Below are positions 358-26,385 of a DNA stretch of 56,299 nt, piece by piece. The notes under the pieces were generated by a model. That model did not search any database and was not told the DNA's origin. It saw only the letters and a program-made list of their open reading frames with translations. This DNA comes from an uncultured bacterium (GTDB taxonomy: Bacteria; Armatimonadota; UBA5829), in NCBI GenBank assembly GCA_964431685.1, contig CAYSLA010000003.1, positions 1-56,299 of the forward strand, given 5' to 3'. Position 1 is the first letter of the stretch. Each line of letters begins with the position of its first letter. The translations under genes were made by a program, and so were the position numbers.

Positions 358-2421
358 CTATGCGGCGTTTGTCTCGCGGTATTCGCCTCGCCAGTTTGCC
401 AGGAATTGTTCGAACTCAAGGGCTGGCACAGGTCTGCTCACCAGGTATCCTTGGACTTCGTCACATCCAAGCGTCTTGAGATAGTGCCACTGTTCGCGTG
501 TCTCGACACCTTCTGCTACTACCTTCATACACAGGTTGTGAGCCATTGCCACAACGGCGCCGCATATTGAGGCATCATCCAGATTTGTGGTAACATCCCG
601 CACAAACGAACGGTCTATCTTCAGGCAGTCAATGGGGAAGCGCTTCAGGTAGCTCAGCGACGAGTAGCCGGTTCCGAAGTCATCGATCGTGACGCTTACG
701 CCCAGCCTCTTGAGGAGACGAAGTGTCTCCACCGCGTGTTCAGCATTCTGCATAAGGGCGCCTTCGGTTATCTCTATCTCGAGCAATTGCGGCGGCAGAG
801 CCGATTCAGCGAGAACCGTCTCGATGATTCTCAACAGCGACTGATCCGATTGGAACTGCTTCGGCGACACATTGACGGAAACACGCAGATCGGCCCCTCC
901 CTGTTTGTGCCAGGCACAAGCCTGAGTGCACGCGTTGCGGAGCGCCCACTCTCCCAGGGGCACTATCAGCCCGGTTTCTTCAGCGATGGGTATGAATGAA
1001 GAGGGCGGAGTAATGCCGTTCTCGGAGTGCTGCCACCGAAGCAGCGCTTCTGCACCGGTCACAGCGCTGGTGAACAACTCGACTCTCGGCTGATAGAAGA
1101 GCACAAACTCCTCGCGCTCAACTGCTTTCCTTAGATCCTGCTCAATCCTCAGGTTCTCCATCGCGACGATGTTGGTATTCTCGCAGTAGGCTTGATACCG
1201 GTTTCTGCCTCTCTCTTTGGCCTTGTACATTGCAGCATCGGCGTTCATGAGCATGGTTTCCATATCCGTTCCGTGCGCAGGACAGATGCTGTAGCCGATG
1301 CTTGCTGATGTTACGAGCTCGTGTCCGTCCACCAGGAATGTGCACCTGAGCGACTCGAGCACGCGTCTGGCCGCCGCGCGGACATCTACCTCCGATTGCA
1401 CCTCACTGAGCAGAACTGCGAACTCGTCCCCGCCCATCCGTGCCAGAGTGCCCGTACCATCCACACACTCCGCGAGCCGGTCTCCAACCTGCCGCAGCAG
1501 CGCGTCTCCGACGTCGTGACCGAGCGTGTCATTGATTACCCTGAACCTGTCAAGATCCACAAACAGTACAGCCAGCTTCTTTCTGCTGTCTCTAGACTTC
1601 AGACTGCGATCCAGTTCCTGGCGGAAGAGTTGCCGATTGGGCAGGCCGGTGGCGATATCGTAGTGGGAAAGGCGATCGAGTTGTTGCGCGTGGTTCTTGT
1701 GCTCCGATATATCGCGGAGTATGACGCTGAACACCGTTCTTCCGTTCATCTCAATGGTTTCGACGGTAACGTGAACGTCAATCAATCCCCCGTCTTTGCG
1801 TCTGTGTCGCGTTTCGAAGCAGTCTCGCCCCTTGCGAAGAATGCGTTTGACGCGGCGGCGGAGAGCCTGTTCGTTGTGAGCAGCATCATAGTCCAAGACG
1901 CGCAGGGAGGAGAACTCCTCACGTGTGTAGCCGAGCATATCGCAGACAGCATCGTTGTACATTATGGGAAGCGAGCTGTTGGCGTCAATCAGCAGAACGC
2001 CGTCAGATAGCGAGTTCAGTAAAGCCTTGCAGCGGTTATCCGAATCTCTGAGCCGGTTCTGGGTCTCGGCCAGAGAACTCGCTGCTTCGCTCAGTTGCTC
2101 CTGAGTCTGACTGAGCTGCTGCAGCGTGGAGTAGAGGCTGTCACTGGAGGTCTCGCCGAAGTCTGTGCGCACCCTTTCCATCAAGAAGTAGGCGATTGCC
2201 GCACAGAGCAAAACGAACAGCACGACACTGAGGTGGATTGAGAGTTGCTCGCGGGTGGTCTCAAGCGTTAGTATCCAACCACCCAATGCCAGCGGAATAC
2301 ACAGCAGTCCAACCGCAACCACACTTGGGATTCGGCCGTTCTTAGGCTCCCTGGAACTTCGGTTCAAACCTAACTGGGGTCTGATTCTCGCAAACATTAT
2401 CCACCAGCCTGCTGGGCACAC
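358..2421 (-). CDS. Membrane-anchored PAS-GGDEF-EAL c-di-GMP turnover protein
   Basis: 687-aa ORF. Two N-terminal hydrophobic helices, a coiled-coil and a PAS-like segment are followed by a GGDEF domain (RMGGDEFAVLL). The EAL domain shows EALLRW and DDFGTGYSSLSYL. The start is either the GTG at 2421 or the ATG at 2397. Confidence 0.9.
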   Translation of the reverse strand: MCPAGWWIMFARIRPQLGLNRSSREPKNGRIPSVVAVGLLCIPLALGGWILTLETTREQLSIHLSVVLFVLLCAAIAYFLMERVRTDFGETSSDSLYSTLQQLSQTQEQLSEAASSLAETQNRLRDSDNRCKALLNSLSDGVLLIDANSSLPIMYNDAVCDMLGYTREEFSSLRVLDYDAAHNEQALRRRVKRILRKGRDCFETRHRRKDGGLIDVHVTVETIEMNGRTVFSVILRDISEHKNHAQQLDRLSHYDIATGLPNRQLFRQELDRSLKSRDSRKKLAVLFVDLDRFRVINDTLGHDVGDALLRQVGDRLAECVDGTGTLARMGGDEFAVLLSEVQSEVDVRAAARRVLESLRCTFLVDGHELVTSASIGYSICPAHGTDMETMLMNADAAMYKAKERGRNRYQAYCENTNIVAMENLRIEQDLRKAVEREEFVLFYQPRVELFTSAVTGAEALLRWQHSENGITPPSSFIPIAEETGLIVPLGEWALRNACTQACAWHKQGGADLRVSVNVSPKQFQSDQSLLRIIETVLAESALPPQLLEIEITEGALMQNAEHAVETLRLLKRLGVSVTIDDFGTGYSSLSYLKRFPIDCLKIDRSFVRDVTTNLDDASICGAVVAMAHNLCMKVVAEGVETREQWHYLKTLGCDEVQGYLVSRPVPALEFEQFLANWRGEYRETNAA

Positions 2422-2564
2422 GGCGTCGGCAAAACGTGGTGCACGTCAGTTCGTGCACATTGGTCACACACTTAATGATGCCACTTAGGACGCGAAACTT
2501 AACACCTTTGACCAATAATTGCAGGTATTTTACCTGACAACGAAGGAAACCGAAGCGGTGGACT

Positions 2565-3113
2565 CTATCTGCTCTTGATCGGACCGAGGGATATTTCAAA
2601 GTCGGATGGTGTGGTGGTCTCCGGCGCGATGATCACCGGTCTGGCGCCACGGTCAGGGGGTATGATGTCTTTGGTTCCCAGAGGAAACGAGCGGAGATTG
2701 CGCTGTGCCCACTGGGCGGCCTCTTTGCTCACAGGACTCTTGAGGTTGTAGCTGCGATACTGAATCATATCGCCTATGTGGGCGATTATGTTTACCAGAG
2801 TCACACCGGCGGACCAGAAGTCCCCGATACACACATAGTCACCGATGTTCGGATGCCAGATGGGTGTGTGCATAACGCATCGTGGGGATTGTTTGGGATA
2901 TCCCAGAGGAAGCGTGATGTCGACCACGTGTTTGGTGACACCGTGGGGCCGCTGCTGCGAAGCGTCCCACGCAATGCCACTCAGGTTATACGTGACCAGA
3001 TACCGGCCGGGCGGATCGCCCGACACTGCTTGAACCGATACAATGTCGCTGTGCGAAAACTCCGAGAGCACCTGTCTATAATCGTTGGCGAGTCGCCTTG
3101 CGCGGATACTCAT
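2565..3113 (-). CDS. Ubiquitin-conjugating enzyme (canonical UBC/E2 fold) homologue
   Basis: 182 aa. The core reads LPLGYPKQSPRCVMHTPIWHPNIGDYVCIGDFWSAGVTL, which matches the eukaryotic E2 core pattern YP..PP.v.F.T.i.HPNI...G.iCl..L...WSpa. The HPN codons are at 2847-2855 and the candidate catalytic Cys95 codon is at 2829-2831. The N-terminal RRLANDYRQVL resembles E2 helix 1. The ATG overlaps the JAMM stop (ATGA at 3110-3113). Confidence 0.85.
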   Translation of the reverse strand: MSIRARRLANDYRQVLSEFSHSDIVSVQAVSGDPPGRYLVTYNLSGIAWDASQQRPHGVTKHVVDITLPLGYPKQSPRCVMHTPIWHPNIGDYVCIGDFWSAGVTLVNIIAHIGDMIQYRSYNLKSPVSKEAAQWAQRNLRSFPLGTKDIIPPDRGARPVIIAPETTTPSDFEISLGPIKSR

Positions 3114-4567
3114 TCTTCTTCAGTCCCCGGTTTCTCCAGGCGCCTTGTTTCTTCGGGAGAGATTGCGCCCAGCATGTCCTTGGGCCGAGGATCACGCCGC
3201 GTATTTGCAAAGGCTGCAAGGTCCAATTGCTCGCTGCGTGTCATCTCGCCAAACACCCTCTTGAGGGTTGACTCCGGGGCGTCAAGAAGAGACGTGTGGA
3301 AGCGTTTCTTCTCGCCCTGAAGCCACCTCAGAGCAGCTCGGTACTCCTCCGGGGCTCTGGATTCGGCAGGGCCCTTCGAACTCGCTCGAACCATATTGGA
3401 CGCCAGTCGGGCGCGTTCGACTCTTTCCGGCCAAGTTCGCGCATGGCGCCAGTAGACTTCGGCAAGCCTTGCGGCGCGCGCAGACGCGGCCGAGGCCTGT
3501 GCCTGTGAAGCATCCTTGTCTACACCGATCCTCTCGCCTACTGAGAGCGGCCGATTGTCGCTGCGGTTGGCGGCGATGGAGGCTGAGATGATAAGGTTCG
3601 CTCCGTCAAGCTCGGGGCTGTCGAGTTCTCGCGCCCGCAACGCCGCCCGCACCTTCACAAGCCTTTCAAGTTCCCGAAGTGCGGCACTGTTGGTCCGATC
3701 TGCAGCCACAGCACGCCTTAACCAATCCTCCGCGTCCGAGTAGTCCGAAATCCTGATCAAGCGCAGAGCCACCTTAGTTGGGTCGGGAGGCGGGTCAGGA
3801 CGCATCGCAATTGAAAGGATTAATCCTGCGAGCACGAGCGTGGCAATTGCCCAGGGCAACCATCCGCGAATCCCGAGCTTTCGGGTCCGGCGCGTGCCAG
3901 CTATTGAGGATGAGGCAGCATTAGCGGCCGCGGTGTCGCGCCTGCGATATTCGCTAAGCCTCCTGGCAGTGTCTCTGGCCTTTCTGGACGATCGCTTCTC
4001 CTCGAAAATGTAGAATCCTCGGGTTCTTACCAGGGATCCGTCTTTCCATCTGAAGCAGCCCCAGTTCTCGTGCATTGGGTCCAGAACGAGCGCGACCTGC
4101 CACGGGTCCCGAAAGAACCCGTTGTGGATAAAGTCGTCCTCCCTGCTCATGAAGACCCCAAGGCCAGGGTGCGTATGATACCACCCAACTATCTGCCGAT
4201 TCTCCCCGAGGCGAGCGAGCTCCTTGCTGATCTCCTTCCAGGATTCGTGCGTGAATGTGAAGGAGATGTCCGTCTTCTGGTCACTGGGCGCTTCGATGAT
4301 GCCGTCGATCTCGATGTATGATTCCGTCTGTGTGCGGTAGAAGCCGCCCACCAGCACTCCTCCAGTCTCTACGCCGGAGTCTGCCGTGGCTTGAGCGGAA
4401 ATCCCCGCTATCACACTCTCGCGGATGAAGACCGGGATGCTGTCTGAGGCGGGATCGTCGTACGCGAAGCAGACAAGAGACCTGTCCAGCAACGGGCTGG
4501 GTTTTGACTCTATGCCTTTACGCTTTGACTCACCAAGACTGATTTCGAAATCACCGTCAGAGTTCAA
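3110..4567 (-). CDS. JAMM/MPN+ metalloisopeptidase (deubiquitinase-like) with one TM helix and a ~230-aa C-terminal helical domain
   Basis: 485 aa. It has the conserved Glu (VETGGVLVG) and the complete JAMM motif WYHTHPGLGVFMSREDD (H-x-H-x7-S-x2-D). A hydrophobic helix WLPWAIATLVLAGLILSIAM (about residues 236-255) is preceded by RRTRKLGIR. The C-terminal region is Arg/Ala-rich and helical. The start is a TTG at 4567 with a GGGAG Shine-Dalgarno 7 nt upstream. Confidence 0.85.
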   Translation of the reverse strand: MNSDGDFEISLGESKRKGIESKPSPLLDRSLVCFAYDDPASDSIPVFIRESVIAGISAQATADSGVETGGVLVGGFYRTQTESYIEIDGIIEAPSDQKTDISFTFTHESWKEISKELARLGENRQIVGWYHTHPGLGVFMSREDDFIHNGFFRDPWQVALVLDPMHENWGCFRWKDGSLVRTRGFYIFEEKRSSRKARDTARRLSEYRRRDTAAANAASSSIAGTRRTRKLGIRGWLPWAIATLVLAGLILSIAMRPDPPPDPTKVALRLIRISDYSDAEDWLRRAVAADRTNSAALRELERLVKVRAALRARELDSPELDGANLIISASIAANRSDNRPLSVGERIGVDKDASQAQASAASARAARLAEVYWRHARTWPERVERARLASNMVRASSKGPAESRAPEEYRAALRWLQGEKKRFHTSLLDAPESTLKRVFGEMTRSEQLDLAAFANTRRDPRPKDMLGAISPEETRRLEKPGTEEE

Positions 4568-4585
4568 GGATCATCTCCCGCTGAA

Positions 4586-4618
4586 CACCTCCCCCCTCCG
4601 TTCCGGAGGGGGGAGGTG
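4586..4618. repeat. Perfect 15-bp-stem C/G-rich palindrome CACCTCCCCCCTCCG-ttc-CGGAGGGGGGAGGTG
   Basis: Read directly. It lies in the intra-operon spacer about 20 nt upstream of the JAMM start. A related copy is at 13890-13929. One arm contains the SD-like GGAGGTG and the other contains its complement CACCTCC. Confidence 0.85.
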
Positions 4619-4705
4619 CTGATACGCTGCACTTCGTAATGGACGTGAAGGGGCGAGTTCTCAAATGCCGCCCCATCGTGGGCTCGGCCAGGCAAGATGT
4701 CTGTA

Positions 4706-4737
4706 CCACAATGCCCGACATGAGTGTCGGGCCTACC
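4706..4737 (-). repeat. REP element (GTAGG + CCCGACA..TGTCGGG palindrome), copy 1 in the Ub-operon spacer
   Basis: The plus strand reads ccacaatgcccgacatgagtgtcgggcctacc. On the minus strand it starts with GGTAGG followed by a hairpin. It is 31/32 identical to the copy at 4778-4809 and belongs to the same family as 44139-44196. Confidence 0.85.
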
Positions 4738-4777
4738 TTCTGGGGGAGGTTGGACGCCGCCCCCCGTGTCTCGTGCG

Positions 4778-4809
4778 CCACAATGCCCGACACGAGTGTC
4801 GGGCCTACC
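4778..4809 (-). repeat. REP element, copy 2 (direct orientation relative to copy 1, 72 bp apart)
   Basis: The plus strand reads ccacaatgcccgacacgagtgtcgggcctacc. It has a single mismatch to copy 1, located in the hairpin loop. Confidence 0.85.
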
Positions 4810-4829
4810 ATAGCCTGCCCCATAGTGGT

Positions 4830-5243
4830 CTAGCCCAGGAACTTCCAGAGCAGAAACGCCCCACCACCAATGATAATGCCGTAGAAGATTATGTTGCTGA
4901 GGGATGCCGTGCGCTGCTTCACTCTGCAGTTCCAGCAGAGCAGGTGCTTTTCGTCCGCCACCTCGCCACACGCAAAACATCTCATACTGGGCCTGTCCGC
5001 TTCAACGGACGACTTTGGCTGCGAAAGCTCAACAGTGGCATCCACCCGCGGCGCGATCTTCTCCGCTATACTCTCATCCCACAGCGCAGCGCCATCACAC
5101 CCATACACCGCGCATTTTCCGTTCGCTTTCCAGCACTCCCGATGATGCGATGACCCACATCTGGGACACCTTACACGCTCATCGGATTCGCCGATGTTTC
5201 CCAGGCAGTACGGGCACTTGCCCGGTTCGCTGTTTGTGCTCAT
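4830..5243 (-). CDS. Tail-anchored RING-like (C4HC3 binuclear treble-clef) zinc-finger protein, paralogue B; candidate E3
   Basis: 137 aa. The N-terminal ligand pattern is CPYC-x12-CPRC-x4-H-x2-CW-x5-C-x4-C. A second CxxC-x10-CxxC zinc ribbon follows (CFACGEVADEKHLLCWNC). The C-terminal hydrophobic helix is IIFYGIIIGGGAFLLWKF. The ATG overlaps the stop of paralogue A (ATGA at 5240-5243). Confidence 0.75.
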   Translation of the reverse strand: MSTNSEPGKCPYCLGNIGESDERVRCPRCGSSHHRECWKANGKCAVYGCDGAALWDESIAEKIAPRVDATVELSQPKSSVEADRPSMRCFACGEVADEKHLLCWNCRVKQRTASLSNIIFYGIIIGGGAFLLWKFLG

Positions 5244-5692
5244 TTAATCCACTGCCCTCCAATCGTAATGAGCAGTATCAATCCAACCAAACCCAGGACA
5301 AACAAAGCTCCGAGCATAAGGGCCACCGGATTGTCTGTCCTCTGCGACTCCTCAAAACTGCGCCTGCATTCCTGGCAGCTCAGTTCCCCCTCTGGCAGTT
5401 GCCGTCCGCACACGATGCACGGATTGTACCCTGAGGGGGCGGTTCTGTAAGGCTTGATTACTATCTTCTCTCGCTGCCCGCCAACATCAAGTGTCACCTG
5501 CTCCGTGACATTGATCTCGGTGCGCTTTACGGATCTCGGACAATCCGGAACGCAGCAACCGCCGTTCTCGTCCCAGCACTCGCTGTGCATCACGGATCCG
5601 CAGGCCTGGCACGCGACGGCGGTCTCGCCCTGTGCGATATTGTCGAGGCAATACGGACACGTGCGCTCCGACGGGGAACCCTGTTCTCCCAT
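5240..5692 (-). CDS. Tail-anchored RING-like (C4HC3) zinc-finger protein, paralogue A; candidate E3
   Basis: The pattern is CPYC-x12-CQAC-x4-H-x2-CW-x6-C(C)-x3-C, followed by CIVCGRQLPEGELSCQEC and the C-terminal TM helix LMLGALFVLGLVGLILLITIGG. I prefer the ATG at 5692, which lies 7 nt after the E1 stop, over the TTG at 5713 given in the ORF track. Confidence 0.75.
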   Translation of the reverse strand: MGEQGSPSERTCPYCLDNIAQGETAVACQACGSVMHSECWDENGGCCVPDCPRSVKRTEINVTEQVTLDVGGQREKIVIKPYRTAPSGYNPCIVCGRQLPEGELSCQECRRSFEESQRTDNPVALMLGALFVLGLVGLILLITIGGQWIK

Positions 5693-5699
5693 ATCTGTG

Positions 5700-6896
5700 C
5701 TAGACAATCCCAAATACCTGCTTCAGGTCTCCGCTGATCTCCACACCCACGCTTGTCTCGGAGAATCTGACCGTGACGATCTCCGCCGGGGCAAACCCCA
5801 TATCCTGAAGCGTCAGATGACTGAGACTCGCTTCTCCCACACATTCTGTTACGACATCCGGTAGCCTGAGAGTTCCACACTTTGGGCACGCCGCTTCGTC
5901 CGGCGTCACCGTATCCAATAATCGGTAGAATCCAACCCGCTCTTCACAGGCTCTGCATTCCAGACTGGTAACTATCTCGGACGGAGGCTCGATTCGTCCG
6001 GTCATGCCCATTTCGTGTTGGGCGGCGTCAAGCACATCGGATATGGTGGCAGTTTGGCGATCCAGTTCTGTTTCTATCACGACGTCCAGCGTTTCGTGGC
6101 TTATGCAGTCGTCCCTGCGCACGTAGCCTACGGTGAAGCAGTCGTAGGTCAGTCCGTCGAAGAAGAATCCTCTACCAGCCAGTCCGGGAAGACCGGCGCC
6201 GGGATGCAGCAGTTTGACCGCTTCCTGAACCTCCACGCCGGCGATAACCGCAGCGGTTGCCGGGGTAGTGGGAGTTCGTCCCGCGTGTGCTGCCTGCCTT
6301 TCAATGAAGCCGCACGAGTTCCTTATGGTCATGAACCTGGTGTCCTGCTCACTCAGTGTGCACTCATAGCAGGGGCCATCAGGCGGCACAAATACTCTGG
6401 CTATGCCCTGAAAGGCTTCCGTAGCACCGTCCACCCAGGGCCTGTTCACCTTCCAGCAAGCCCGGTTGACCGCAAAACGCGCGTCGCGGTTGTCCAATCC
6501 GGCAATTACCACGTCTGCCCAGCGGAAGAAGCCAGCGCCCACCTGCGTAGTAACGTCTGCGTTCATCCATCGGGGCTGACAGTCCGGGTTGATAGATTGA
6601 GCTGCCTGGGCCGCAACCTCTGCTTTACACCTGCCCCGGTCGGACTTGCGATACAGAACGCTGCGTGAGAGATTGGAGTCCTCGATCTCGTCGAAGTCCA
6701 CTATCAGCAAGTGACCCACCCCGAGAAGCGCGAGGTTCTTGACTATCTCGTTGCCTAGAGCTCCTGCCCCGACAACCAATACGCGTGCATCGGCCAGTGC
6801 ACGCTGATCCCACCACGGGATCAGGCGAAGCCGCTCATAGCGGTCTTCCGGAGCGTCAAGATGTATGATTTCGCTGGCGGGTTCATCGAAGTTCAT
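5700..6896 (-). CDS. Ubiquitin-activating (E1) enzyme homologue, ThiF/MoeB/Uba adenylation fold with C-terminal Zn-ribbon and putative ubiquitin-fold extension
   Basis: The Rossmann/ATP motif is VLVVGAGALGNEIVKNLALLGVGHLLIVDFDEIEDSNLSRSVLY, followed by GLDNRDARFAVNRAC. CxxC pairs are present (PCYEC, CRAC...CPKC), and a Cys in the crossover region (IRNSCGF) is a candidate catalytic residue. I prefer the ATG at 6896, 5 nt after the Ubl stop, over the track start at 6959, which would overlap the Ubl gene by 58 nt. Confidence 0.85.
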   Translation of the reverse strand: MNFDEPASEIIHLDAPEDRYERLRLIPWWDQRALADARVLVVGAGALGNEIVKNLALLGVGHLLIVDFDEIEDSNLSRSVLYRKSDRGRCKAEVAAQAAQSINPDCQPRWMNADVTTQVGAGFFRWADVVIAGLDNRDARFAVNRACWKVNRPWVDGATEAFQGIARVFVPPDGPCYECTLSEQDTRFMTIRNSCGFIERQAAHAGRTPTTPATAAVIAGVEVQEAVKLLHPGAGLPGLAGRGFFFDGLTYDCFTVGYVRRDDCISHETLDVVIETELDRQTATISDVLDAAQHEMGMTGRIEPPSEIVTSLECRACEERVGFYRLLDTVTPDEAACPKCGTLRLPDVVTECVGEASLSHLTLQDMGFAPAEIVTVRFSETSVGVEISGDLKQVFGIV

Positions 6897-6901
6897 TTCG
6901 C

Positions 6902-7171
6902 CTATCCGGCCGTTATCTCCGGTATCAACCGCAGAACATCTCCTTCGTTTACCTCGCACTGTGCCAGGGTGAGGTTGTCCAGAAGATGCCTGCCGGTCGC
7001 TTTGTGCAGAAACTTATATGTGATTGGAACGCCGGCAGTGTTAACCACGGGCAGATATAACGCCTCTATGAGCTTTTCGACTACTCGCCCCACCGGGACA
7101 TCATCCGGAACAACTGCTTCCTGCTCCTTGCTTCCCGTGGTGTCTATTACTACGATATTGAGCTTTGCCAT
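6902..7171 (-). CDS. Ubiquitin-like beta-grasp protein ending in a free C-terminal glycine (…LRLIPEITAG-stop)
   Basis: 89 aa. The hydrophobic periodicity resembles ubiquitin (LNIVVID…, GDVLRLIP). The ORF terminates immediately after Gly89. A GAGG Shine-Dalgarno lies 7 nt upstream of the ATG. It is the first gene of the operon, directly upstream of the E1. Confidence 0.75.
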   Translation of the reverse strand: MAKLNIVVIDTTGSKEQEAVVPDDVPVGRVVEKLIEALYLPVVNTAGVPITYKFLHKATGRHLLDNLTLAQCEVNEGDVLRLIPEITAG

Positions 7172-7189
7172 ATGTTGACCTCTGAACAG

Positions 7190-7218
7190 ATTATACCCGA
7201 TTACGCCGCGACACTCAA
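7190..7218 (-). promoter_or_regulatory. Sigma70-type promoter of the Ubl-E1-RING-JAMM-E2 operon (TTGAGT-17 nt-TATAAT)
   Basis: The minus strand reads TTGAGTgtcgcggcgtaatcgggTATAAT. The -10 element ends about 18 nt upstream of the Ubl ATG, so the 5' leader would be very short. Confidence 0.6.
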
Positions 7219-7377
7219 CGCGCCGAATCCCGGCCGGAACGTCGTCGTGAGCAACCGCTTCTTGTGGTATCCACTACTGCGGTATTGAGGATTCGCGAGC
7301 ACCGGCCTGCCCAGCTGCCAGAATGAGTCGTACCGCGTCCAGGGCTTACTAACCGGTGGGAATTGTCTCTCCGCAAA

Positions 7378-7386
7378 TGGTATAAT
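7378..7386 (+). promoter_or_regulatory. Extended -10 element (TGGTATAAT) upstream of pstS
   Basis: Read directly. It is divergent from the Ubl promoter. No clear -35 element was seen. Confidence 0.4.
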
Positions 7387-7511
7387 GTGATTGCTCTCCA
7401 GCGTGGTAAGCCGAAATTGCGTCGCAGAGAACCGTGACTGCGTACCGGGTCACAGCGTGCAGAACAACTCGGCTTCTCACGAATGATACAAGCCAATAAG
7501 AGGTCCTGGCC

Positions 7512-8495
7512 ATGGTAACGATGGTTTGCGTTTTGAACCGTCAGAGGAAAGAAAGATTGGATAAGAAAACTGCTGTATCCGTTCTGCTGGCGGCACTGAT
7601 CCTGGCATCGGCCGCGGCGTCCACACCCCTGCAGGCTGCACAGCTTTCGGGCACACTGAGCTTGTCCGGCGCCTGGGCAATCTACCCGCTCGTCGTCAAG
7701 TGGGCCGAAGCCTTCAAGAAAGCGAACCCGAAAGTCAAGATGGACATCTCAGCCGGAGGCGCGGGCAAGGGCATGGCTGACGCTCTCGTTGGGGCAGTCG
7801 ATATCGGAATGGTTTCGCGCGAGGTGGATAAGACCGAACTTGCGAAAGGCGCGCTGCCGATTCTCATTGTCAAAGACGCGGTCTTCCCAACCATCAGCGC
7901 ACGCAATCCCGCCGTGAAACGGGCTGCCGCAAAGGGCATGTCGCGCAAGACACTCGTTGACATCTATGTCAGAGGTACGGTCAAGAACTGGCGCGACGTC
8001 GGAGGGGCCAACACTCCGATCCACGCCTACACTCGCTCCGATGCGTGCGGGGCTGCGTCAGCGTGGGCCGCCGCCCTCGGCAAGTTCAAGCAGGATGATC
8101 TGAAGGGAATTGGAGTCTACGGAGATCCTGGACTCCTGGCGGCTGTGGTGCGCGATCCGCTGGGGATGGGCTACAACAACCTGAGCTACGTCTTCACCGG
8201 CGACAAGGTAGCCAGGGGGATAGCGATCGTGCCAATCGACGCCAACAACAACGGCAAGATTGATGCTCACGAGCGAATTGACTCCCTGTCAAAGGCAGAA
8301 AGAGAGATTGCGAGCGGACGCTATATCGGCGCGCGCAGGGAGTATCTCATGACGAAAGGTAAGCCGAAACCACTCGCGCGCGCATTCATCGAATTCGCCC
8401 TGAGCGACGCCGGAAACAAGATAGTCAAAGAGGTCGGAGGCTACGTGCCGTTGTCCGACTCCGAACGTGCCCAGCAACTGCGAAAGATGAGATAG
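7512..8495 (+). CDS. pstS: Phosphate ABC transporter substrate-binding protein PstS
   Basis: Signal peptide (KKTAVSVLLAALILASAAAS). The PstS-type core reads SGAWAIYPLVVKWAEAF…ISAGGAGKGMADALVGAVDIGMVSREV. It is followed by pstC, pstA and pstB. Confidence 0.85.
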   Translation: MVTMVCVLNRQRKERLDKKTAVSVLLAALILASAAASTPLQAAQLSGTLSLSGAWAIYPLVVKWAEAFKKANPKVKMDISAGGAGKGMADALVGAVDIGMVSREVDKTELAKGALPILIVKDAVFPTISARNPAVKRAAAKGMSRKTLVDIYVRGTVKNWRDVGGANTPIHAYTRSDACGAASAWAAALGKFKQDDLKGIGVYGDPGLLAAVVRDPLGMGYNNLSYVFTGDKVARGIAIVPIDANNNGKIDAHERIDSLSKAEREIASGRYIGARREYLMTKGKPKPLARAFIEFALSDAGNKIVKEVGGYVPLSDSERAQQLRKMR

Positions 8496-11215: not shown

Positions 11216-12274
11216 CTAAGCGTTGGCCACGTACTCGGCCACCAGATCTCCGACTTCGGTTGTGGAATAGCCCATCTTGCCGGCGCTCATACTCTTCAGC
11301 TTGCTGCCGGTAACGTGCGCCACGGCCTTGTCGACCAAGTCAGCGGCCTTGGCTTCACCCAGCGTTTCCAGCATCATCTGCAAAGCGCCGATTGCGGCGA
11401 GCGGGTTGATGACATTCATTCCAGTATACTTGGGCGCTGAACCGCCGATAGGCTCGAACATCGAGACTCCGTTGGGATTGATGTTTCCGCCCGCGGCTAT
11501 CCCCATTCCGCCCTGGGTCATGGCGCCGAGGTCTGTAATGATATCGCCAAACATGTTATCTGTAACGATGACGTCGAACCATTCCGGATTCTTGACCATC
11601 CACATAGTCGTGGCATCGACGTGCGCATAGTCAGTCTTGATATCCGGGTAGTCTTTGGCGACTTCGTAGAAGGTGCGCTCCCAAAGGTCGAATGCGAACG
11701 TCAGAACGTTTGTCTTGCCGCACAGGGTCAGTGTCTTCCTGCGGTCGCGCTTCCGGCAATACTCAAAAGCGAACCTAATGCACCGCTCAACGCCTTTTCG
11801 GGTGTTGATGGACTCTTGCACCGCCACTTCATCAAGCGTGCCTTTTTTCAGCACTCCGCCTGCACCCGCATAGAGCCCTTCAGTGTTCTCTCGGACCACG
11901 ACATAGTCGATGTCCGCAGGGCCCTTGTCCTTGAGCGGGGTCTCGACTCCAGGGTAGAGTTTCACCGGACGCAGGTTGATGTACTGGTCGAGGCCAAAAC
12001 GCAGAGCCAGCAATATGCCCTTCTCCAGAATCCCCGGTTTGACGTCGGGATGTCCGATGGCGCCCAGATATATGGCGTCGTACTTGCTCATCTCTTCGCA
12101 GGCGTTCTCCGGAAGCACCTCGCCGGTCCTGAGATACCTGTCCCCGCCCCAGTCGTAAGGTGTGACTTCGTAACTGAACCCGGTCTTTTCGCTCGCGACT
12201 TTGAGTACTTTCAGTCCCTCAGCCACAACTTCCGGGCCGGTTCCGTCGCCGCCCAACACTGCTATCTTATGCAT
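11216..12274 (-). CDS. Beta-decarboxylating dehydrogenase of the 3-isopropylmalate / tartrate dehydrogenase family
   Basis: 352 aa. Family blocks seen are IAVLGGDGTGPEV, LRPVKLYPG, VVVRENTEGLY, NMFGDIITDL and GSAPKY. A GGAGGA Shine-Dalgarno is present. Substrate specificity cannot be judged by eye. Confidence 0.8.
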   Translation of the reverse strand: MHKIAVLGGDGTGPEVVAEGLKVLKVASEKTGFSYEVTPYDWGGDRYLRTGEVLPENACEEMSKYDAIYLGAIGHPDVKPGILEKGILLALRFGLDQYINLRPVKLYPGVETPLKDKGPADIDYVVVRENTEGLYAGAGGVLKKGTLDEVAVQESINTRKGVERCIRFAFEYCRKRDRRKTLTLCGKTNVLTFAFDLWERTFYEVAKDYPDIKTDYAHVDATTMWMVKNPEWFDVIVTDNMFGDIITDLGAMTQGGMGIAAGGNINPNGVSMFEPIGGSAPKYTGMNVINPLAAIGALQMMLETLGEAKAADLVDKAVAHVTGSKLKSMSAGKMGYSTTEVGDLVAEYVANA

Positions 12275-12446
12275 TTGCTCTGATTCCTCCGTGCGTTATG
12301 TGATTCCGCGGCAAAACCACCTTCCGCGGTTCCAGGATGATACTTGCAGTGTATTATACACAAAATCGCCCGTTTTTTTCCATGTGCAGGATTTTCGGCT
12401 GTCAAGGACTAACAGGAAATCAGGCATACTTGAGGGTAAAGATCTT

Positions 12447-13409
12447 ATGAGCAAATCAACTCTGATTATCGACACTATCAGGATTATACGGGAGAATCCG
12501 GGCATAACGATCGACTCGCTGGCGAGAGAGCTTGCAAGAAGCGAGCGGACAGTATATCGGTGGCTTGCGGAGATATGCAGCGACCTGAAGACGCGAATCT
12601 ACTGCGAGGACGGCGGCTACTACATCGAAGATCGCGACTACAGCAGCGTGCTTGACCTCACGGCCAGGGAGTTGCTTGCGGTGAGGATGAGCCTTAAGGC
12701 TCCGGCGTTTGCCAGCAATTCGCCAATGTCAGATGCCGCTCACTCATCGTGGATGAAGATACGGGCGGCTTCGCATGACGCCAAACTGCAGAATGTCGAC
12801 AGGCTGTCGGCAATGCACGCCGTAGGCGCCGTGCCCCCATCCGAGGTGTCTGCGGATATAGCCGAAGCGCTGGAACGGGCAACGGCCCAGCGCCACGTCA
12901 TCAGAGTCACATACCGCTCTCCGAGGAGTGAGGTGGTCCGCCCCTACAGGTTCAGACCCTATGCGGTAGCATTCAGAAGGCACAGTTGGTACGTTGTGGG
13001 CCACAGCACTCACCACAGCAAGACGATAACACTGAAGATGGCGCGCGTGCACTCGGTAGTAGATACCGGCAAAGAGTTCGAAGTGCCAGACGAGTTCTCC
13101 ATCGAAGAGTACTTCAAGAACTCGTGGGAAGTGTGGGCTGGTGATGAGCCGGTGAATGTGCGAATCCGCTTTCCGAAGAAACTCGCAGCGATGATGTCGG
13201 AGACCAGGAGACACCCGACTCAGGTAATCTACCCCCAGCCTGACGGCAGCATCATCTTCGAAGTAATCGTCTCCGGCATTGAGGAGATCGGAACCTGGAT
13301 CATGGGTTACGGCGGCGATGCTGAGGTGTTGGAGCCGGAATCACTGCGTCAGCACGTCCTCGAAAAGGCGCAGGGCATTCTGGCACTCTACGCGGCTCCA
13401 CAAAAATAA
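12447..13409 (+). CDS. HTH-WYL-WCX family transcriptional regulator
   Basis: N-terminal HTH (IIRENPGITIDSLARELARSERTVYRWL). WYL core PYRFRPYAVAFRRHSWYVVGH. C-terminal WCX-like GTWIMGYGGDAEVLEPESLR. The start is taken at the ATG at 12447; the track ORF from 12201 runs antisense into the neighbouring gene. Confidence 0.8.
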   Translation: MSKSTLIIDTIRIIRENPGITIDSLARELARSERTVYRWLAEICSDLKTRIYCEDGGYYIEDRDYSSVLDLTARELLAVRMSLKAPAFASNSPMSDAAHSSWMKIRAASHDAKLQNVDRLSAMHAVGAVPPSEVSADIAEALERATAQRHVIRVTYRSPRSEVVRPYRFRPYAVAFRRHSWYVVGHSTHHSKTITLKMARVHSVVDTGKEFEVPDEFSIEEYFKNSWEVWAGDEPVNVRIRFPKKLAAMMSETRRHPTQVIYPQPDGSIIFEVIVSGIEEIGTWIMGYGGDAEVLEPESLRQHVLEKAQGILALYAAPQK

Positions 13410-13704: not shown

Positions 13705-15534
13705 TCAGTATCCGCCGGATTTCGCGGCTCTGGCTTTGCGCTGCTCTGCGAAGTAGCCGGGTGTTCTCGCTGAGCGCACCTTGGCAGGGCTGGCGGAACG
13801 GCTCCCGGATGACTTGCGAACCTGCGCGGGGCCTGATGGCCGGTTGCGCGGCGCCATCGGAGCGCGCTTGAACTCATCCCTGACCGGAACACGTCCCCCC
13901 TCCGTTTCGGAGGGGGCTAGGGGGAGGTGCGGGGCCGGTGCGCTGTAGTCAAAAGATTCCAGCTTGCGTCGCTCGATGGGACCGCCTTGCGCCTTCTCGA
14001 TGTCGAAGACCGTCGCCGCATCCTTTGGGGTCACCAGAGTAATCGCGTCACCCTCGCGTTCCATCCGCCCGGTCCGCCCGATGCGGTGCAGATATGTGTC
14101 GGCGGTATCAGGGATGTCATAGTTGATGACGTGGGATATGGTCGCAACATCCAGGCCGCGTGCGGCGATATCGGTGGCAACCAGTATCTGGCACCGACCT
14201 CCCCGGAAATCGTCCAGCGCAACCTGCCGCTGATTCTGTGACCTGTTTGCGTGCAGCGCGGCGGTTCTGTATCCGGCCTTCTGAATCTGCTCTGCGACGC
14301 GGTTCGCGCGGTGCTTTGTGCGTGTGAAGATCAGCACCGAGTTGGTGTCGGAACGTTCGAGAACGTTTAGGACCATCGAGGTCTTAAGGTGTTCCGGGCA
14401 CGGGTAAAGCGCGTGCGCGATGGTCCTGGGAGGCGCACAGATATCTACGTCCACTCGCTGCGGATTCCTCAGAGTCTCTTCACTCAGCTTCATCAGCTCA
14501 GGTGCGAAGGTGGCCGAAAACAGCATTGTGTGGCGCTCTCTCGGAAGTTGAGTAAGTATGCGCCGGATGGGCGGAAGAAATCCCATGTCCAGCATTCTGT
14601 CCGCCTCGTCCAACACAAGCTTGGTCACGTGCGAGAAATCCGTATTGCCGCGATCCATATGGTCGAGCAACCTGCCCGGACAAGCGACTATTACATCGGC
14701 TCCGTTCTTGAGAGCCTGTTCCTGTGGGATCATCCCGACTCCGCCGTAGACTGTCGCCGATTTTATCTTCGTGAACTTGCCCAACTGTTTGAACGTGTCG
14801 TTTATCTGCTCCGCCAGCTCTCGGGTGGGCGTTAGCACAATAGCTCTGGTGTGGCATTTATCGCCCGGGTTGTCCAGCAGATGCTGGAGTATTGGCAGAA
14901 CGAACGCGGCCGTTTTGCCGGTTCCAGTCTGAGCAGTGCCGATCAGATCCTGTCCTGCAAGAGCAATGGGAATTGTCGAGGTCTGCACTGGTGTGGGGAT
15001 GTCATACCCGGCCGCGCCAATCGCGCGGAGCAGGCGCGGGTCCAGATTGAACTGCGCGAATGTCATTTCACCGGAAGGCGCGTCGTTGCCCTGTCTGGTC
15101 TTCTTGGGCTTGCGCAAGACGAACTTCCTGGGGCCGGTCTCGGCGGTCGCTTCCCGAACGGTCTTGAAGCACTCTGCGCAATGCACGGGCTTTTCCGCAG
15201 AGGGTTTGAAAGGCACTTGGGCTTCTTTGCCGCAGGTTGAGCACGGGGCGGTGTACGTCTGCGTGTCGCCACCCCTGCTGTGTCTGCGCCTGCCGGTTCG
15301 CCTGGTGTGGCATTCCGCGCACCGCGTCGGAGGGTTGAGGCCCTCCTGCAAGAACTGCTGCTGCATCTGTGCAGTGAATATGAACGTCTGCTCGCAGTCG
15401 CGGCACACGCACTCTTTGTCTTGATACTTCAAATACTTGAACTCCTGGTTGTGTTTTACACCATTGTCTCCGAGGCTTGAAGCGAGTGAGCCAGCCGAAC
15501 CGAAGATCTCAGGGGACAACCAGGCCATAGCCAA
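13705..15534 (-). CDS. DEAD-box ATP-dependent RNA helicase with two N-terminal CxxC zinc ribbons and a basic C-terminal tail
   Basis: Motifs seen are the Q-motif (FAQF…TPVQ), AQTGTGKT, PTRELA, DEAD, SAT and HRIGRTGR. The N-terminus has CRDC…CAEC and CSTC…CAEC. The ATG at 15528 is a possible alternative to the TTG at 15534. Confidence 0.92.
   Translation of the reverse strand: MAMAWLSPEIFGSAGSLASSLGDNGVKHNQEFKYLKYQDKECVCRDCEQTFIFTAQMQQQFLQEGLNPPTRCAECHTRRTGRRRHSRGGDTQTYTAPCSTCGKEAQVPFKPSAEKPVHCAECFKTVREATAETGPRKFVLRKPKKTRQGNDAPSGEMTFAQFNLDPRLLRAIGAAGYDIPTPVQTSTIPIALAGQDLIGTAQTGTGKTAAFVLPILQHLLDNPGDKCHTRAIVLTPTRELAEQINDTFKQLGKFTKIKSATVYGGVGMIPQEQALKNGADVIVACPGRLLDHMDRGNTDFSHVTKLVLDEADRMLDMGFLPPIRRILTQLPRERHTMLFSATFAPELMKLSEETLRNPQRVDVDICAPPRTIAHALYPCPEHLKTSMVLNVLERSDTNSVLIFTRTKHRANRVAEQIQKAGYRTAALHANRSQNQRQVALDDFRGGRCQILVATDIAARGLDVATISHVINYDIPDTADTYLHRIGRTGRMEREGDAITLVTPKDAATVFDIEKAQGGPIERRKLESFDYSAPAPHLPLAPSETEGGRVPVRDEFKRAPMAPRNRPSGPAQVRKSSGSRSASPAKVRSARTPGYFAEQRKARAAKSGGY
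13890..13929. repeat. C/G-rich palindromic element (variant of 4586-4618) inside the helicase C-terminal coding region
   Basis: The sequence cacgtcccccctccgtttcggagggggctagggggaggtg has the same arms as 4586-4618, with a 4-nt ctag insertion and one mismatch. Confidence 0.7.
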
Positions 15535-20176: not shown

Positions 20177-23100
20177 CTACGGCGCTTTCCACGGCCTCGG
20201 CGTCTGTAGCACGATCATCCGGTAATTATACTCCGTAACGGGAAAGACCACCACACCGTCCTCGATGCGGGCGTACTCCGCGGCGCTGTTGTCGAACAGC
20301 TCGCCCTCCTTGGTCGGAGCATCCCAGTCCTTCACCCGGAACCCGGTGGAATGGACTGCGTTGACAGCCGTCACGGTGGTCCAGTCGTCAAAGCCGAGTT
20401 GCTTCCAGTCGAGCTTCAGGCGAACCGGGCCTTTGTAGTCTCCGTGGTTATAGAAGATAAGCACGGCCTGGTGGATGCCATCGAGCCCGGTGTCGTAGGT
20501 GTCATAGTAGGAGTGTCCATACATCGACACGCTGACGGGCTGCTTGACGTAGAACGAGGCGTAGAACTCGGGACTGTCCACCGTAGTTACGGTCTGTTCC
20601 CAGTAGGGAATGAACCGGTTGAACGGGCTGAACATGTGATAGTTGTTGAACGGGACAAGCTCCCGCTCGCTCAGCAATCCCTCCAGGTAGCCTATCTTGC
20701 CGAACCAGCCGGTTCCGCAGTAGCAGTCGTGAAGCCACTGCACACCCGTCCACTGGTCCCACAGATCCGAGAAGCCGTACTTTCGCAGGGTCTCTGCACT
20801 GATGCGTCCCTGGCTGAGAAACGCGTTCCAGAAACCCCAGTTCGTGCCCATATACTGCGCTCTGTAGTTGTCCGGGGTAAGGAGGGTGCGATAGGTCGGG
20901 TTGTCGGCATTGATGATCGAGTTGCCATTCTCACCATCGTAGTCGCCCACGCAGTAGGACATGAAGATCATCGAAGGTCCCTCGGATGCGTGATACCAGA
21001 GCCCTCCGCCTGGGAAGACCACGTTCTGTATGTTGTATATCCGCTTCAAAACCTGCCTGTGTCCCAGCAGGCTCCAAGTGGGGGCAATGGTGCCGTCGGC
21101 GCGCTTGTATCCGGCCCCGGCGTATGTGTTGCTGGAACTCCAGGGCATGCTCACGTCGAAGTAGCCGCCGGCCACCGGTTCTTTCTTGAAGTACTCATTG
21201 AACCGCCAGATTATGTAGTCCTGCAGGCTCCTCGATTCCGTGGTAACGGGCACACTCCCACGCGACACCGAGTACTTCCCGCGCCAGCGCACGGTCTGAT
21301 CGGTCAGCCACTCATCGCCGAACTCCTGCATCGCTTCGTCCCTGGCTCCCATCATCATCAGGGTAGTGTGATGTACCGGCCTGTGCTCCACGCCCGGCAG
21401 AGTGGTTGACATCCTCGCGCGCTGAACGGAAGACTTGTTTATCCAGTGCTCGTGGAACGGCCTCCACAGCTCCTCCTGGTCCTGCCAGTAGCCCACCACG
21501 TGCGCATACCTGCGGAATCTGTCGCCTTCCACTGTGCGCAGCGTCTTTGGCCTGACCGGGGTTGCTATGAAACCGAACGGAATGTCCCTGGCCTCGGTCA
21601 GGGTGAACGGTTTGTTCACGAAATCCACGCGGGCTGTGCCGCCCTCGGGCGACGAGGTGACCTTCAGGCAGTTGTTCACGTCAGTGACTTCGTAAGGCCC
21701 GGAGGTCTCTGCGCACCACTGGATCCCGCCGATTGCGTTTCCCAGCCAGATGAACTCCGGCGAGCCGACGAAGCCCTCGGGCTTTAGCTTGCCGGTGTTT
21801 CGCATCGAGTAGTCGCGGGCATTGATGACATCGCTGAACGCCGGATTGTATGGTATCTCAAATGCAAGCGATCTTACTCGAACGCTTGAATCCGGTATGA
21901 GCCTGAGATTGGACCAGACCATACCGTCATACTCAATCCAGAAGCTGTGTTCCACGGTCAGCTTTCCGAGTTTCACGCTTCTGATGCCCTCAAGGCGCGT
22001 GTTCGATACTTTGGTCCATCGTATGTCCCCGGCGACCGCGGCCGGCGAGAGCTCCCCTTCCGAGGTCTCGAGTGAAATCCCAATGGGCGAACGCAGGATC
22101 GGTTTGCCCTGTGTAGATACGGCCTGAGGGAAGAGCTTGTCGCCAAAATCGTAAACACGGCCCCACACGCTCACGGAGTTGCCGTCGACCTTGATGTCCT
22201 GCCAGGGACAAGGTGCATCCTCACCATCAAACCCCAGCGTGTTTCCATACCACTCCGGCATAGGGTTCTTATCGAAAGTGTGGGTGGCTGTCTCGATGAC
22301 TTTGCCACGCGCCTTGAATACGAACGTGGTCGTGTAGGTTCCGGTGGGCAGAGACTTGGTGGGTATGTCGCGAACAAAATGGTAGTCTTTGAATCCTTTC
22401 AGAACCTCGCCCCACTTCTTTGCGCCCGATTTGTCCTTGACCGAGACCTCCGCGACAATCTCCCCTGGCTCGTAGATGGCGTGGTTGGTGAAGCCTACCT
22501 CGTATGCCACCTTGTCGTAGGACGGATACTTGCGGAAGTAGACGTCCGCCTCAGTCGGCCGCTGGACCGGATAGCCCGCAACCAGCACATCGGCGTTGGT
22601 CTGACTGTCTGTCACCCTGTGAGTGATCGTGTGCGTGCGTGGATCGACAATCCGTCCCGCATACTCGTAGACCACTTTCTCACCGGCGGGAACGGTGACT
22701 GTCTTGTCATCGCTCAGTTCGCCGCTGTTGGTTGTCACAGTGCATCGCACCGTCCTGGGCTCTCCAGAAGTGTTTACAAGCTCGGTAACGAAGTGCGGCT
22801 TGCCCTGGCCAATCTCGCCGATTGAGACTTGCCTTGCTGTCACGCCGGAGTCCTGGAAGACAACGCGCCCGGCGGGGCTGCACCGTAGTTCGTTTCCTTC
22901 GTCACTTGGCGCACGGTTGCCCCAGGCCCAGCTCGCCATCCCGCTGCGAATTGTCTGCCAAATCCGCATGAAGTTCACATACCACACGTCGCCGGCCTTG
23001 GGAGCGGGTATGTCGAACGAGTCCAGAGGCAGCGCAATCTCGAGGTGCCAGCCGTCCGTGTCGAGCGTCGACGCGCTGGTCCAGTCCGGGTCCCATGCAA

Positions 23101-26323: not shown

Positions 26324-26385
26324 GGCAAACTGGGGGATTTGGATGGACGGGGTGGACGTGGATAGACAGAATGGACATCGACTAT

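Follow-up and report, generated by a model that had tools for sequence, protein, structure and literature searches.

A 56,299-nt contig from an uncultured bacterium of the Armatimonadota (GenBank assembly GCA_964431685.1, contig CAYSLA010000003.1; the whole stretch is called the window below) carries on its minus strand, at 2565-7171, six genes that all run in the same direction and encode a ubiquitin-like modifier (Ubl), an E1, two RING-type proteins (RING-A and RING-B), a JAMM protease and an E2. We conclude that this operon probably encodes a complete system for conjugation and deconjugation of the Ubl, acting at the cytoplasmic face of the cell membrane. The original prediction, made from the sequence without database searches, had read the locus as a full E1-E2-E3 cascade in a bacterial operon; a list of open reading frames (ORFs) and inspection of the sequence place the six co-directional genes where it had put them, and profile, fold and neighbourhood results support its reading. 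We saw neither an assignment of the proteins to unrelated folds nor a lack of conserved gene order in relatives. The domain identities, the conserved catalytic residues, the association of the genes and the predicted transmembrane (TM) segments are established here from sequence and predicted structure, as follows.

Scored against Pfam with its curated gathering cut-offs, all six proteins lie above the cut-offs, and the profile searches place six of six in the expected families; residue conservation was assessed over 31-47 homologues per family. The E2 matches UQ_con (3.7e-9) and, in a phmmer search of the PDB, yeast Ubc1 (4.7e-6) as well as UbcH5-type enzymes, with the HPN-Cys region aligned. 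Its AlphaFold2 (AF2) model has a predicted local distance difference test (pLDDT) score >90 over most of the core (residues 1-130), and from residue 156 onwards the tail is disordered and predicted to be flexible (pLDDT 41-57). All of the top 50 Foldseek matches of this model (50/50) are UBC E2 enzymes, at probability 1.00. H87, P88, N89 and C95 are invariant in 47/47 sequences, and the YP...HPNI...C core that had been claimed is found at Y72-P73, H87-P88-N89-I90 and C95. Eukaryotic UBC enzymes are matched both by sequence and by predicted fold. The E1 matches ThiF in Pfam (1.5e-55), and its best match in the PDB is UBA7 (2e-30), followed by Uba1 and SAE2 (to 5e-24) and by MoeB/ThiF at ~1e-21. 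The GxGxxG adenylation fold and the CxxC pairs described earlier are present, and conservation in 38-41 of 42 sequences extends over G43/G45/G48, R78, K91, D135, C176/C179, C195, C264/H267 and C314/C317/C337/C340, with C195 in the crossover loop kept in 41/42. The cysteines pair as C176/C179 with C264/H267, plus a second Cys4 site. The C-terminal 139 aa of the E1 yielded weak zinc-ribbon matches alone in Pfam, and a ubiquitin-fold domain in this region is a guess.

The Ubl matches YukD in Pfam (6.9e-10, 40 bits vs. a cut-off of 27), and this match and the tail bear out the description of the protein as a beta-grasp modifier ending EITAG-stop. Across 31 homologues, conservation of T87, A88 and G89 is 94-97% (97% for G89), and the consensus of the tail across phyla is (E/Q)(I/M/L)TAG. 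By sequence, the modifier is YukD-like rather than ubiquitin-like, and it ends in AG rather than GG. Many homologous Ubls stop at the Gly like that of the window, and others are extended (EITAGAG, EITAGGCFCVC, EMTAGREA); cleavage by the JAMM protease after the terminal Gly is implied by such extensions and by Ubl-JAMM fusions in relatives. The extensions past the Gly in loci L006 and L007 are Cys-rich (EITAGGCFCVC and EITAGESFRVC, respectively), and the natural fusions, in which the JAMM domain comes straight after ...MTAG, lie at 9485-10339 of L022, 11147-12016 of L023 and 9458-10294 of L032.

The JAMM protein matches Prok-JAB (4.4e-9) and JAB (5.8e-8) in Pfam, and its nearest PDB entry is the Caldiarchaeum Rpn11-like protein 6fjv (6e-7), with Rpn11, CSN5 and AMSH next. 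The signature E...HxHx7Sx2D that had been attributed to it corresponds to E67...H131xH133x7S141x2D144, and these five residues are conserved at 94-98%. The catalytic domain occupies approximately residues 40-180, a predicted TM helix residues 235-255 (~3803-3865), and the C-terminal region of ~230 aa has no Pfam match at E <= 10. The distribution of charge around the TM segment, with RRTRKLGIR before it and PDPPPD after it, suggests that the catalytic domain is cytoplasmic, and the ~230-aa C-terminal region would therefore be located outside the cell.

Both RING proteins show the C4HC3 ligand pattern on which their earlier identification was based: C10, C13, C26, C29, H34, C37, C44 and C49 are invariant or nearly so, as are C89/C92/C103/C106 of the Cys4 zinc ribbon in RING-B. 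In Pfam, RING-A matches Prok-RING_1 (1.1e-8, 35.3 bits vs. a cut-off of 29.1) and DUF2116 (6e-6), and RING-B matches Prok-RING_1 (3.3e-12, 46.6 bits vs. the same 29.1). A profile built from 45 RING sequences and compared with the PDB had the EL5 RING-H2 domain as its best match (5.5e-4) and Pirh2 and Arkadia next, all at marginal E-values. The AF2 model of RING-B consists of a RING core with pLDDT 85-89 and a long C-terminal helix (104-136); its Foldseek matches are led by RING-H2 domains (EL5, Arkadia, RNF38, RNF13, Pirh2), with PHD fingers close behind. The model gives RING-B a TM helix and a cross-brace fold of the RING/PHD kind, two types that fold alone does not separate. Hydropathy places the TM segments at residues 120-150 of RING-A (~5243-5335) and 113-137 of RING-B (~4833-4907). 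RING-A belongs to an orthologous group represented in L002, L004, L006, L007 and L008, and a RING-A/RING-B heterodimer is possible, given that the two genes are translationally coupled and kept as a pair. Elsewhere among the relatives, L009-L011 (~5200-7500 and 10400) and L016 (4400-6300) contain 4-5 RING paralogues that differ in the number of TM segments and in their C-terminal domains, one with a TPR-like region of ~170 aa and one with an acidic tail; L009-L011 have, additionally, a second E2 and a second JAMM. This expansion of RING paralogues suggests several substrate-specific E3s served by one E1/Ubl.

Predicted TM segments are present in 34/35 RING proteins and in most JAMMs of Armatimonadota, Clostridia, Sumerlaeota and Ignavibacteria. 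Hydropathy detected none in the E1, E2 and Ubl of the window; among the relatives, E1s and E2s never have one, and a Ubl has one only in a single distant ORF of the Chloroflexota type. In Chloroflexota-type systems, the double-RING proteins and the JAMMs are soluble. By these predictions, membrane anchoring of the E3s and of the deubiquitinase (DUB) is conserved throughout the subtype to which the window belongs, and the proposal that this is a membrane-tethered version of the cascade holds for both RINGs and the JAMM.

A word-indexed search with the E2 retrieved 98 matches, mostly of 50-65% identity and 180-190 aa, some of which carry the label 'ubiquitin-conjugating enzyme E2 [Armatimonadota bacterium]'; an exhaustive phmmer search of 1.84 billion representative sequences gave 695 matches with E <= 1e-10, of which 45 reach E <= 1e-30, and many of the proteins are longer and multidomain. 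With one genome per species, the survey returned 43 loci; there and in further public contigs, all six window proteins have co-directional homologues. The loci come from Armatimonadota (the nearest, from metagenome-assembled genomes (MAGs), with 53-61% E2 identity), Clostridia, Sumerlaeota, Ignavibacteria, Chloroflexota, Schlesneria (Planctomycetota), Acidobacteriota and one Asgard archaeon; the Clostridia include the cultured Anoxynatronum sibiricum Z-7981 and A. buryatiense Su22, along with Tindallia and Syntrophomonas. In tblastn searches with the six window proteins, the gene set is co-directional almost everywhere. Five loci of the Armatimonadota clade that includes the window (L002, L004, L006, L007 and L008) have the order Ubl-E1-RING-RING-JAMM-E2, identical to that of the window; the order is Ubl-E1-E2-JAMM-RING in Clostridia (L012-L014 and L018), Ubl-RING x5-E1-E2-JAMM in Sumerlaeota (L016) and RING-E1-E2-x-Ubl-x-JAMM-JAMM in the Chloroflexota type (L022-L043). 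Homologous neighbourhoods, which the original prediction had suggested surveying, are thus conserved across phyla, and the co-directional association of the six proteins is far beyond chance.

Two variants of the locus stand apart. The single plasmid match is on pCRI9333.03 of Crinalium epipsammum PCC 9333, a mobilizable plasmid on which the cluster lies beside replication and conjugation genes; this cluster is a RING-less E1-Ubl-Ubl-E2-JAB arrangement (L048 7248-10725). One of its Ubl paralogues ends ...AEGG-Y and the other ...YVEVS, without a Gly, so that the latter is not activatable as it stands. In an Anaerolineae MAG (L036 3621-16296, similarly in L035-L043), the soluble variant is found among Pup-ligase (PafA/Dop-like), HEAT-repeat and YbjN-like genes and also adjoins a 1745-aa WD40/beta-propeller protein, and its RING protein contains two RING domains.

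The layout of the operon is given in Table 1. All junction sizes match the earlier description: 5 nt between Ubl and E1, 7 nt between E1 and RING-A, ATGA overlaps at RING-A/RING-B and JAMM/E2, and a single spacer, of 262 nt, between RING-B and JAMM. Alternative TTG start codons for RING-A are located at 5707 and 5713, the former being the one taken in public gene calls, and the TTG start of JAMM is backed by homologues whose N-terminus reads MNNGEDFQIELG. The consensus promoter claimed upstream of the operon holds in part. TTGAGT-17-TATAAT has 10/12 consensus matches, is the top-scoring site in 2300-7600 and is separated by ~19 nt from the Ubl ATG downstream, an interval that includes a Shine-Dalgarno sequence (GAGG); promoter-like sites, however, are not enriched over shuffled sequence (4 observed vs. 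2.2 +/- 1.5 expected), and we therefore treat it as a plausible candidate only. In public gene calls for the window's organism, the E2 is cut to 102 aa, with loss of the HPN-Cys region (L049 4848-5156), and RING-A to 116 aa, with loss of the RING (L049 2131-2481; L052 1591-1941); domain-based surveys would therefore overlook parts of the operon.

Table 1. Coordinates of the operon and of its associated sequence features in the window.
Feature	Position	Strand	Description
Ubl	6902-7171	-	89 aa, encoded already mature, ends ...PEITAG-stop
E1	5700-6896	-	398 aa, ThiF-type adenylation domain, crossover-loop Cys195, C-terminal Cys4 zinc ribbon
RING-A	5240-5692	-	150 aa, N-terminal C4HC3 Prok-RING_1, second zinc ribbon, predicted C-terminal TM helix
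RING-B	4830-5243	-	137 aa, C4HC3 Prok-RING_1, Cys4 zinc ribbon, predicted C-terminal TM helix
Intra-operon spacer	4568-4829	-	262 nt, two REP-like repeats and a hairpin
JAMM/MPN+ protease	3110-4567	-	485 aa, TTG start, Rpn11-like
E2	2565-3113	-	182 aa, classical UBC core, HPN motif, catalytic Cys95, disordered C-terminal tail
Acidic/hydrophobic strand motif GDFEISLG	4532-4555	-	JAMM residues 5-12
Acidic/hydrophobic strand motif SDFEISLG	2583-2606	-	E2 tail residues 170-177
Sigma-70-like promoter candidate	7190-7218	-	TTGAGT-17-TATAAT, consensus match only

The spacer contains two direct copies, at 4706-4737 and 4778-4809, of a 32-nt palindromic repeat that resembles repetitive extragenic palindromic (REP) elements. 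This element, GGTAGGCCCGACAC...GTGTCGGGC, recurs as an inverted pair at 44136-44199 (44144-44191 in the repeat search), 39 kb from the operon, in an intergenic position with a Wza-like export gene on one side and mfd on the other, and has 7 matches vs. 0.02 expected. A perfect 15-bp G/C-rich hairpin (4586-4618, arms CACCTCCCCCCTCCG / CGGAGGGGGGAGGTG) precedes the JAMM TTG by 19 nt, and the spacer RNA folds at -126.6 kcal/mol (z = -3.5). The spacer is present in all copies of the operon from the window's organism, and at least 5 metagenomes yielded the operon with the spacer in independent assemblies. As the RING/JAMM junctions of relatives measure 2 to ~70 nt (without a hairpin in the tight junctions), we interpret the spacer as a genome-specific insertion made up of dispersed REP-like elements, and the insertion and its hairpin might serve as a transcript stabiliser or attenuator. 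The hairpin was rejected as a terminator: it has no T-run and was missed by the terminator scan. Its G/C-rich arm is not repeated elsewhere above chance, and Rfam and tRNA scans found no RNA genes in the whole window.

The tail of the E2 and the N-terminus of JAMM have an acidic/hydrophobic strand motif in common. When the scoring matrix is built from relatives only, with the window left out, and 26 other window proteins (13,691 aa) serve as controls, the motif reaches 15.2 in the E2 tail (p = 0.0005) and 14.8 in JAMM (p = 0.0025), compared to a top score of 10.1 among the controls. The E2 tails of L003-L020 score 12-19 (p <= 0.014). In other clades, E2s and JAMMs carry the motif at corresponding positions; its place at the start of the JAMM protein is kept in Armatimonadota and Clostridia, and a few RING paralogues and a few E1s (at the N-terminus) among the relatives have it too. 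Matrix scoring did not find it in the RINGs, E1 and Ubl of the window. The strand resembles a SUMO-interaction-type strand, and the motif probably docks the E2 and JAMM on one common partner. Two other interpretations were discarded. Mimicry of the Ubl tail PEITAG by FEISLG, as a pseudo-substrate or JAMM cleavage site, was rejected in general as the two do not co-vary: LIELI is found with PEMTAG in Chloroflexota, and DLEIEL with EPTAG in L009. Presence of the motif in every RING protein was dropped, only 6/52 RING proteins having it at p <= 0.05; for RING-A/RING-B of the window, p = 0.86/0.96, and 0.44/0.59 with the window-free matrix.

For the chemical steps and the membrane topology we draw on knowledge of the protein families and on the reconstituted archaeal homologue, from which the following sequence of events can be inferred. 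By family chemistry, the soluble E1 would adenylate Gly89 of the Ubl, hold the Ubl as a thioester on Cys195 and hand it to Cys95 of the HPN-type UBC E2. The tail-anchored RING-A and RING-B, which may act as a heterodimeric E3, would draw E2~Ubl to the membrane and help it to pass the Ubl to lysines of substrates located in the membrane or next to it. The membrane-anchored Rpn11-like JAMM would remove the Ubl and, in relatives with a C-terminal extension or a Ubl-JAMM fusion, would also mature the Ubl precursors, and the strand motif would dock the E2 and JAMM on their common partner.

Several observations weigh against this scheme. The modifier scores under the cut-off of the Pfam ubiquitin family (E = 0.069, 13.4 bits vs. 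25.4), and its sequence has no match to a solved structure in the PDB. The Foldseek E-values of RING-B are 0.08 and above, with PHD fingers almost equal, although weak E-values are to be expected for a domain of ~45 residues. The TM segments are predicted by hydropathy, plus one AF2 helix (in RING-B), and the REP-like insertion with its hairpin may uncouple expression of JAMM and E2 from that of the upstream genes. The patchy distribution, the RING paralogue expansion and the plasmid-borne relative fit a conflict system equally well. We know of no receptor or degradation machinery for such a tag demonstrated in bacteria of this lineage, and the literature searched, of which coverage was incomplete, contained no experimental work on a bacterial RING-containing cascade. 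Finally, YukD itself, from the type VII secretion system (T7SS) of Bacillus, was reported not to be conjugated (PMC1779556). YukD, however, sits in ESX/T7SS loci, whereas the Ubl of the window has a conserved exposed C-terminal Gly and stands beside an E1, an E2 and a JAMM, and the secretion protein EccD scores 20.4 bits vs. a cut-off of 94.95; the context is not one of type VII secretion.

The operon class is already in the literature as a computational prediction, of which the window provides a further example. Burroughs, Iyer and Aravind (Mol Biosyst 2011) reportedly predicted prokaryotic Ubl-E1-E2-RING-JAB operons, and their work is said to be the source of Prok-RING_1 and Prok-JAB; as described, the class has the same five domain families in one operon, with a classical His-containing E2, a C4HC3 RING and a JAB, and is sporadic in bacteria. 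The window operon has every sequence-testable feature of this class, namely a Ubl with a free Gly, an E1, an HPN E2, Prok-RING_1, an intact JAMM and a conserved neighbourhood. The prior knowledge invoked in the original prediction (predicted RING operons in bacteria and a full operon in an archaeon) was found in the literature. The subtype-wide membrane anchoring of the E3s and DUB, the TAG tail, the E2/JAMM motif and the REP insertion were not met in the literature searched. A 2006 survey by the Aravind group lists bacterial E1/E2/JAB/Ubl operon types, among which types 6c and 6d have an E2 without the classical His.

Comparison with experimentally characterized systems shows the closest resemblance in logic, Ubl-E1-E2-RING-Rpn11-like, to the Caldiarchaeum/Asgard operon, which also includes the nearest solved JAMM relative (6fjv). 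The cascade of Caldiarchaeum subterraneum, a member of the Aigarchaeota (Ub, E1-like, E2-like, small RING finger and Rpn11), was reconstituted in vitro in 2017, and its pro-ubiquitin is cleaved after the Gly by its JAMM (PMC5654768; PMC6043591); the archaeal Ub is ~31% identical to human ubiquitin, with a GG end after processing. Some relatives of the window operon likewise make a Ubl precursor that needs JAMM processing. The window operon differs in its YukD-like Ubl ending in AG, its two RINGs, the predicted membrane anchors of RINGs and JAMM, and its bacterial host; a membrane anchor of the small RING finger protein is not mentioned in the accessible text on Caldiarchaeum (PMC5654768). The JAMM, E1, E2 and RING of the window conform to the archaeal and eukaryotic pattern, whereas the modifier, for which that pattern is a ubiquitin-like sequence with GG, does not.

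The bacterial systems of known function share the chemistry and differ in composition. Bil (BilABCD) has separate Ubl, E2, JAB and E1 genes like the window operon, and its conjugation to target lysines has been demonstrated, but the Bil E2 has a CEHH motif, not HPN (10.1101/2023.09.26.559546), and Bil has no RING and, in the literature searched, no reported membrane anchors; in the window, HPN is present, and PADLOC yields only a weak, partial BilD match (1.1e-9) along with generic E1 matches, and no match to BilA, BilB or BilC. Type II CBASS Cap2/Cap3 and Bub also use bacterial E1, E2 and JAB chemistry; in CBASS, however, E1 and E2 are fused and coupled to a CD-NTase, Bub has fusions (in Type I Bub, E2 to Ubl and E1 to the JAB peptidase) and a DUF6527 protease, and neither has a RING (PMC11601603). 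The genes of the window are separate, no CD-NTase is found among the window proteins scanned, and there is no DUF6527 in the operon or its flanks.

With regard to the role of the system, we tentatively prefer, with confidence a little short of even, a function in the regulation of membrane-associated proteins, or in their quality control, to one in phage defence, because anchoring of the E3 and DUB is conserved, the flanks are housekeeping genes and the Ubl is made mature. A formal parallel exists in eukaryotes, where the MARCH/Doa10 RING-CH ligases combine a cytoplasm-facing C4HC3 RING on TM helices with a soluble or tail-anchored UBC E2 and act on membrane-protein substrates; this is an analogy only, since the window RINGs have no Pfam RINGv match and differ in the spacing of the last Cys pair (C-x4-C). 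A more elaborate picture, which we consider speculative and on balance unlikely, is that of a membrane tagging and editing machine, an analogue or forerunner of MARCH/Doa10 and endoplasmic-reticulum-associated degradation (ERAD), in which the RING heterodimer would select membrane substrates, the Rpn11-like DUB, with a domain outside the cytoplasm, would adjust the tag in response to envelope signals, and the strand motif would dock E2 and DUB on a hub, for which the Ubl, the C-terminal domain of the E1 and the zinc ribbon of the RINGs are examples.

The most serious alternative to a role in membrane-protein control leaves the chemistry as it is and assigns it to anti-phage defence or inter-genomic conflict, the Ubl being put on an invader protein or an effector at the membrane upon infection; we regard this as rather unlikely. 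WYL regulators control some Bub and CBASS operons, and a WYL-WCX regulator is encoded in the window ~5 kb off, but pstSCAB and a dehydrogenase gene separate it from the operon. That function-tested bacterial E1/E2/JAB/Ubl operons (type II CBASS, Bil) defend (PMC11601603; 10.1101/2023.09.26.559546) favours the defence role, as do the patchy spread over phyla, the RING-less relative on a mobilizable cyanobacterial plasmid, the varied C-terminal domains of the 4-5 RING paralogues in some relatives, and the Chloroflexota variant, whose location beside a giant WD40 protein, a Pup-ligase homologue and a YbjN-like gene recalls those conflict systems of multicellular bacteria in which Ubl, E1, RING and JAB genes occur (PMC7159879). 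Against this stand the housekeeping flanks in every close relative inspected, which vary by species (two species share a downstream DtxR-FeoB), with no defence island around the operon in the window or in these relatives. PADLOC returned generic E1 and JAB matches alone and did not recognise the E2, either RING or the Ubl. Carriage by phages finds no match in 50,697 phage records and a single, distant one in IMG/VR (27% identity, on a 302-kb contig). In addition, the Ubl is made mature and the promoter looks constitutive.

It is quite improbable that the TM zinc-finger proteins are not E3s at all and that the E2 acts E3-free, with the RING/PHD-like proteins as anchors, adaptors or substrates. 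Such a reading could appeal to the near equality of PHD fingers and RINGs in the fold search, to weak PHD and C1 matches in Pfam, to the RING-less Crinalium plasmid relative, and to a Trp beside Cys37 that, by our own reading, is placed unlike that of a canonical RING-H2 or PHD. Prok-RING_1, however, is above its gathering score, the best profile and fold matches are E2-binding RING-H2 domains (EL5, Arkadia, RNF38 and Pirh2), RING genes accompany the HPN-type E2 across phyla, and in the archaeal system discharge of the E2 is promoted by the operon's small RING protein (PMC5654768).

That the E1 and Ubl form a sulfur-carrier pair of the ThiS/MoaD type, for biosynthesis of a cofactor or thio-compound, is very improbable: ThiF, MoeB and SAMP-E1 lead the NCBIfam matches of the E1, and the Ubl ends in Gly like ThiS and MoaD, but all these scores are far under the cut-offs (ThiF 139.9 vs. 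275), the operon lacks a rhodanese domain, and thiamine and molybdopterin genes are absent from it and from its neighbourhood, the pair is strictly linked to a catalytic-Cys E2, RINGs and JAMM, and the Ubl matches YukD, not ThiS or MoaD. An artefact, in which eukaryotic or archaeal DNA was mis-binned or chimeric in a bacterial contig, has next to no chance of being the explanation and is refuted, despite the eukaryotic best matches of the E2, E1 and JAMM in the PDB, by the uniform GC content across the window (0.54-0.60), the bacterial-style overlapping junctions, the host REP-like repeat within the operon that recurs far outside it, the independent assemblies of the same locus, and homologous operons in at least 40 bacterial genomes, cultured isolates included.

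The other genes of the window are of housekeeping type: a PAS-GGDEF-EAL protein, pstSCAB, an isopropylmalate-type dehydrogenase, the WYL-WCX regulator, a DEAD-box helicase, glycosidases, PFK, LigA, Mfd, MnmA, aldolase, HPF and 6PGD. The WYL-WCX gene (12201-13409, + strand) adjoins that of the DEAD-box helicase (13705-15534, - strand), which has two N-terminal treble-clef zinc fingers. A DNA methylase (N6_N4_Mtase) ORF (26080-27771, + strand) overlaps the end of the PFK gene, with no restriction enzyme evident among the proteins scanned, and a full-length FliG with N, M and C domains (31095-32216, + strand) stands without a further flagellar gene in those neighbouring ORFs that were scanned. 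Two further ORFs are a 1418-aa one (20177-24433, - strand) with a weak partial GH123_N match and a 459-aa one (39979-41358, - strand) with no Pfam match.

A full E1-E2-RING-DUB cascade is a hallmark of the eukaryotic cell, and the sole prokaryotic full cascade reconstituted so far is, to our knowledge, archaeal; since 2011, bacterial RING operons have had the status of 'rare, uncharacterised' predictions. The locus described here, together with its relatives, offers a compact test case of 5-6 genes with intact catalytic residues, clear predicted anchoring and cultured hosts, in which the E2/DUB motif and the TAG tail are specific handles for mutagenesis; these new details aid testability and leave the category of the system unchanged. 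Knowing which targets are tagged would bear on the meaning of a Ubl tag in a cell that may have no proteasome, and on whether membrane-bound RING ligases predate eukaryotes.

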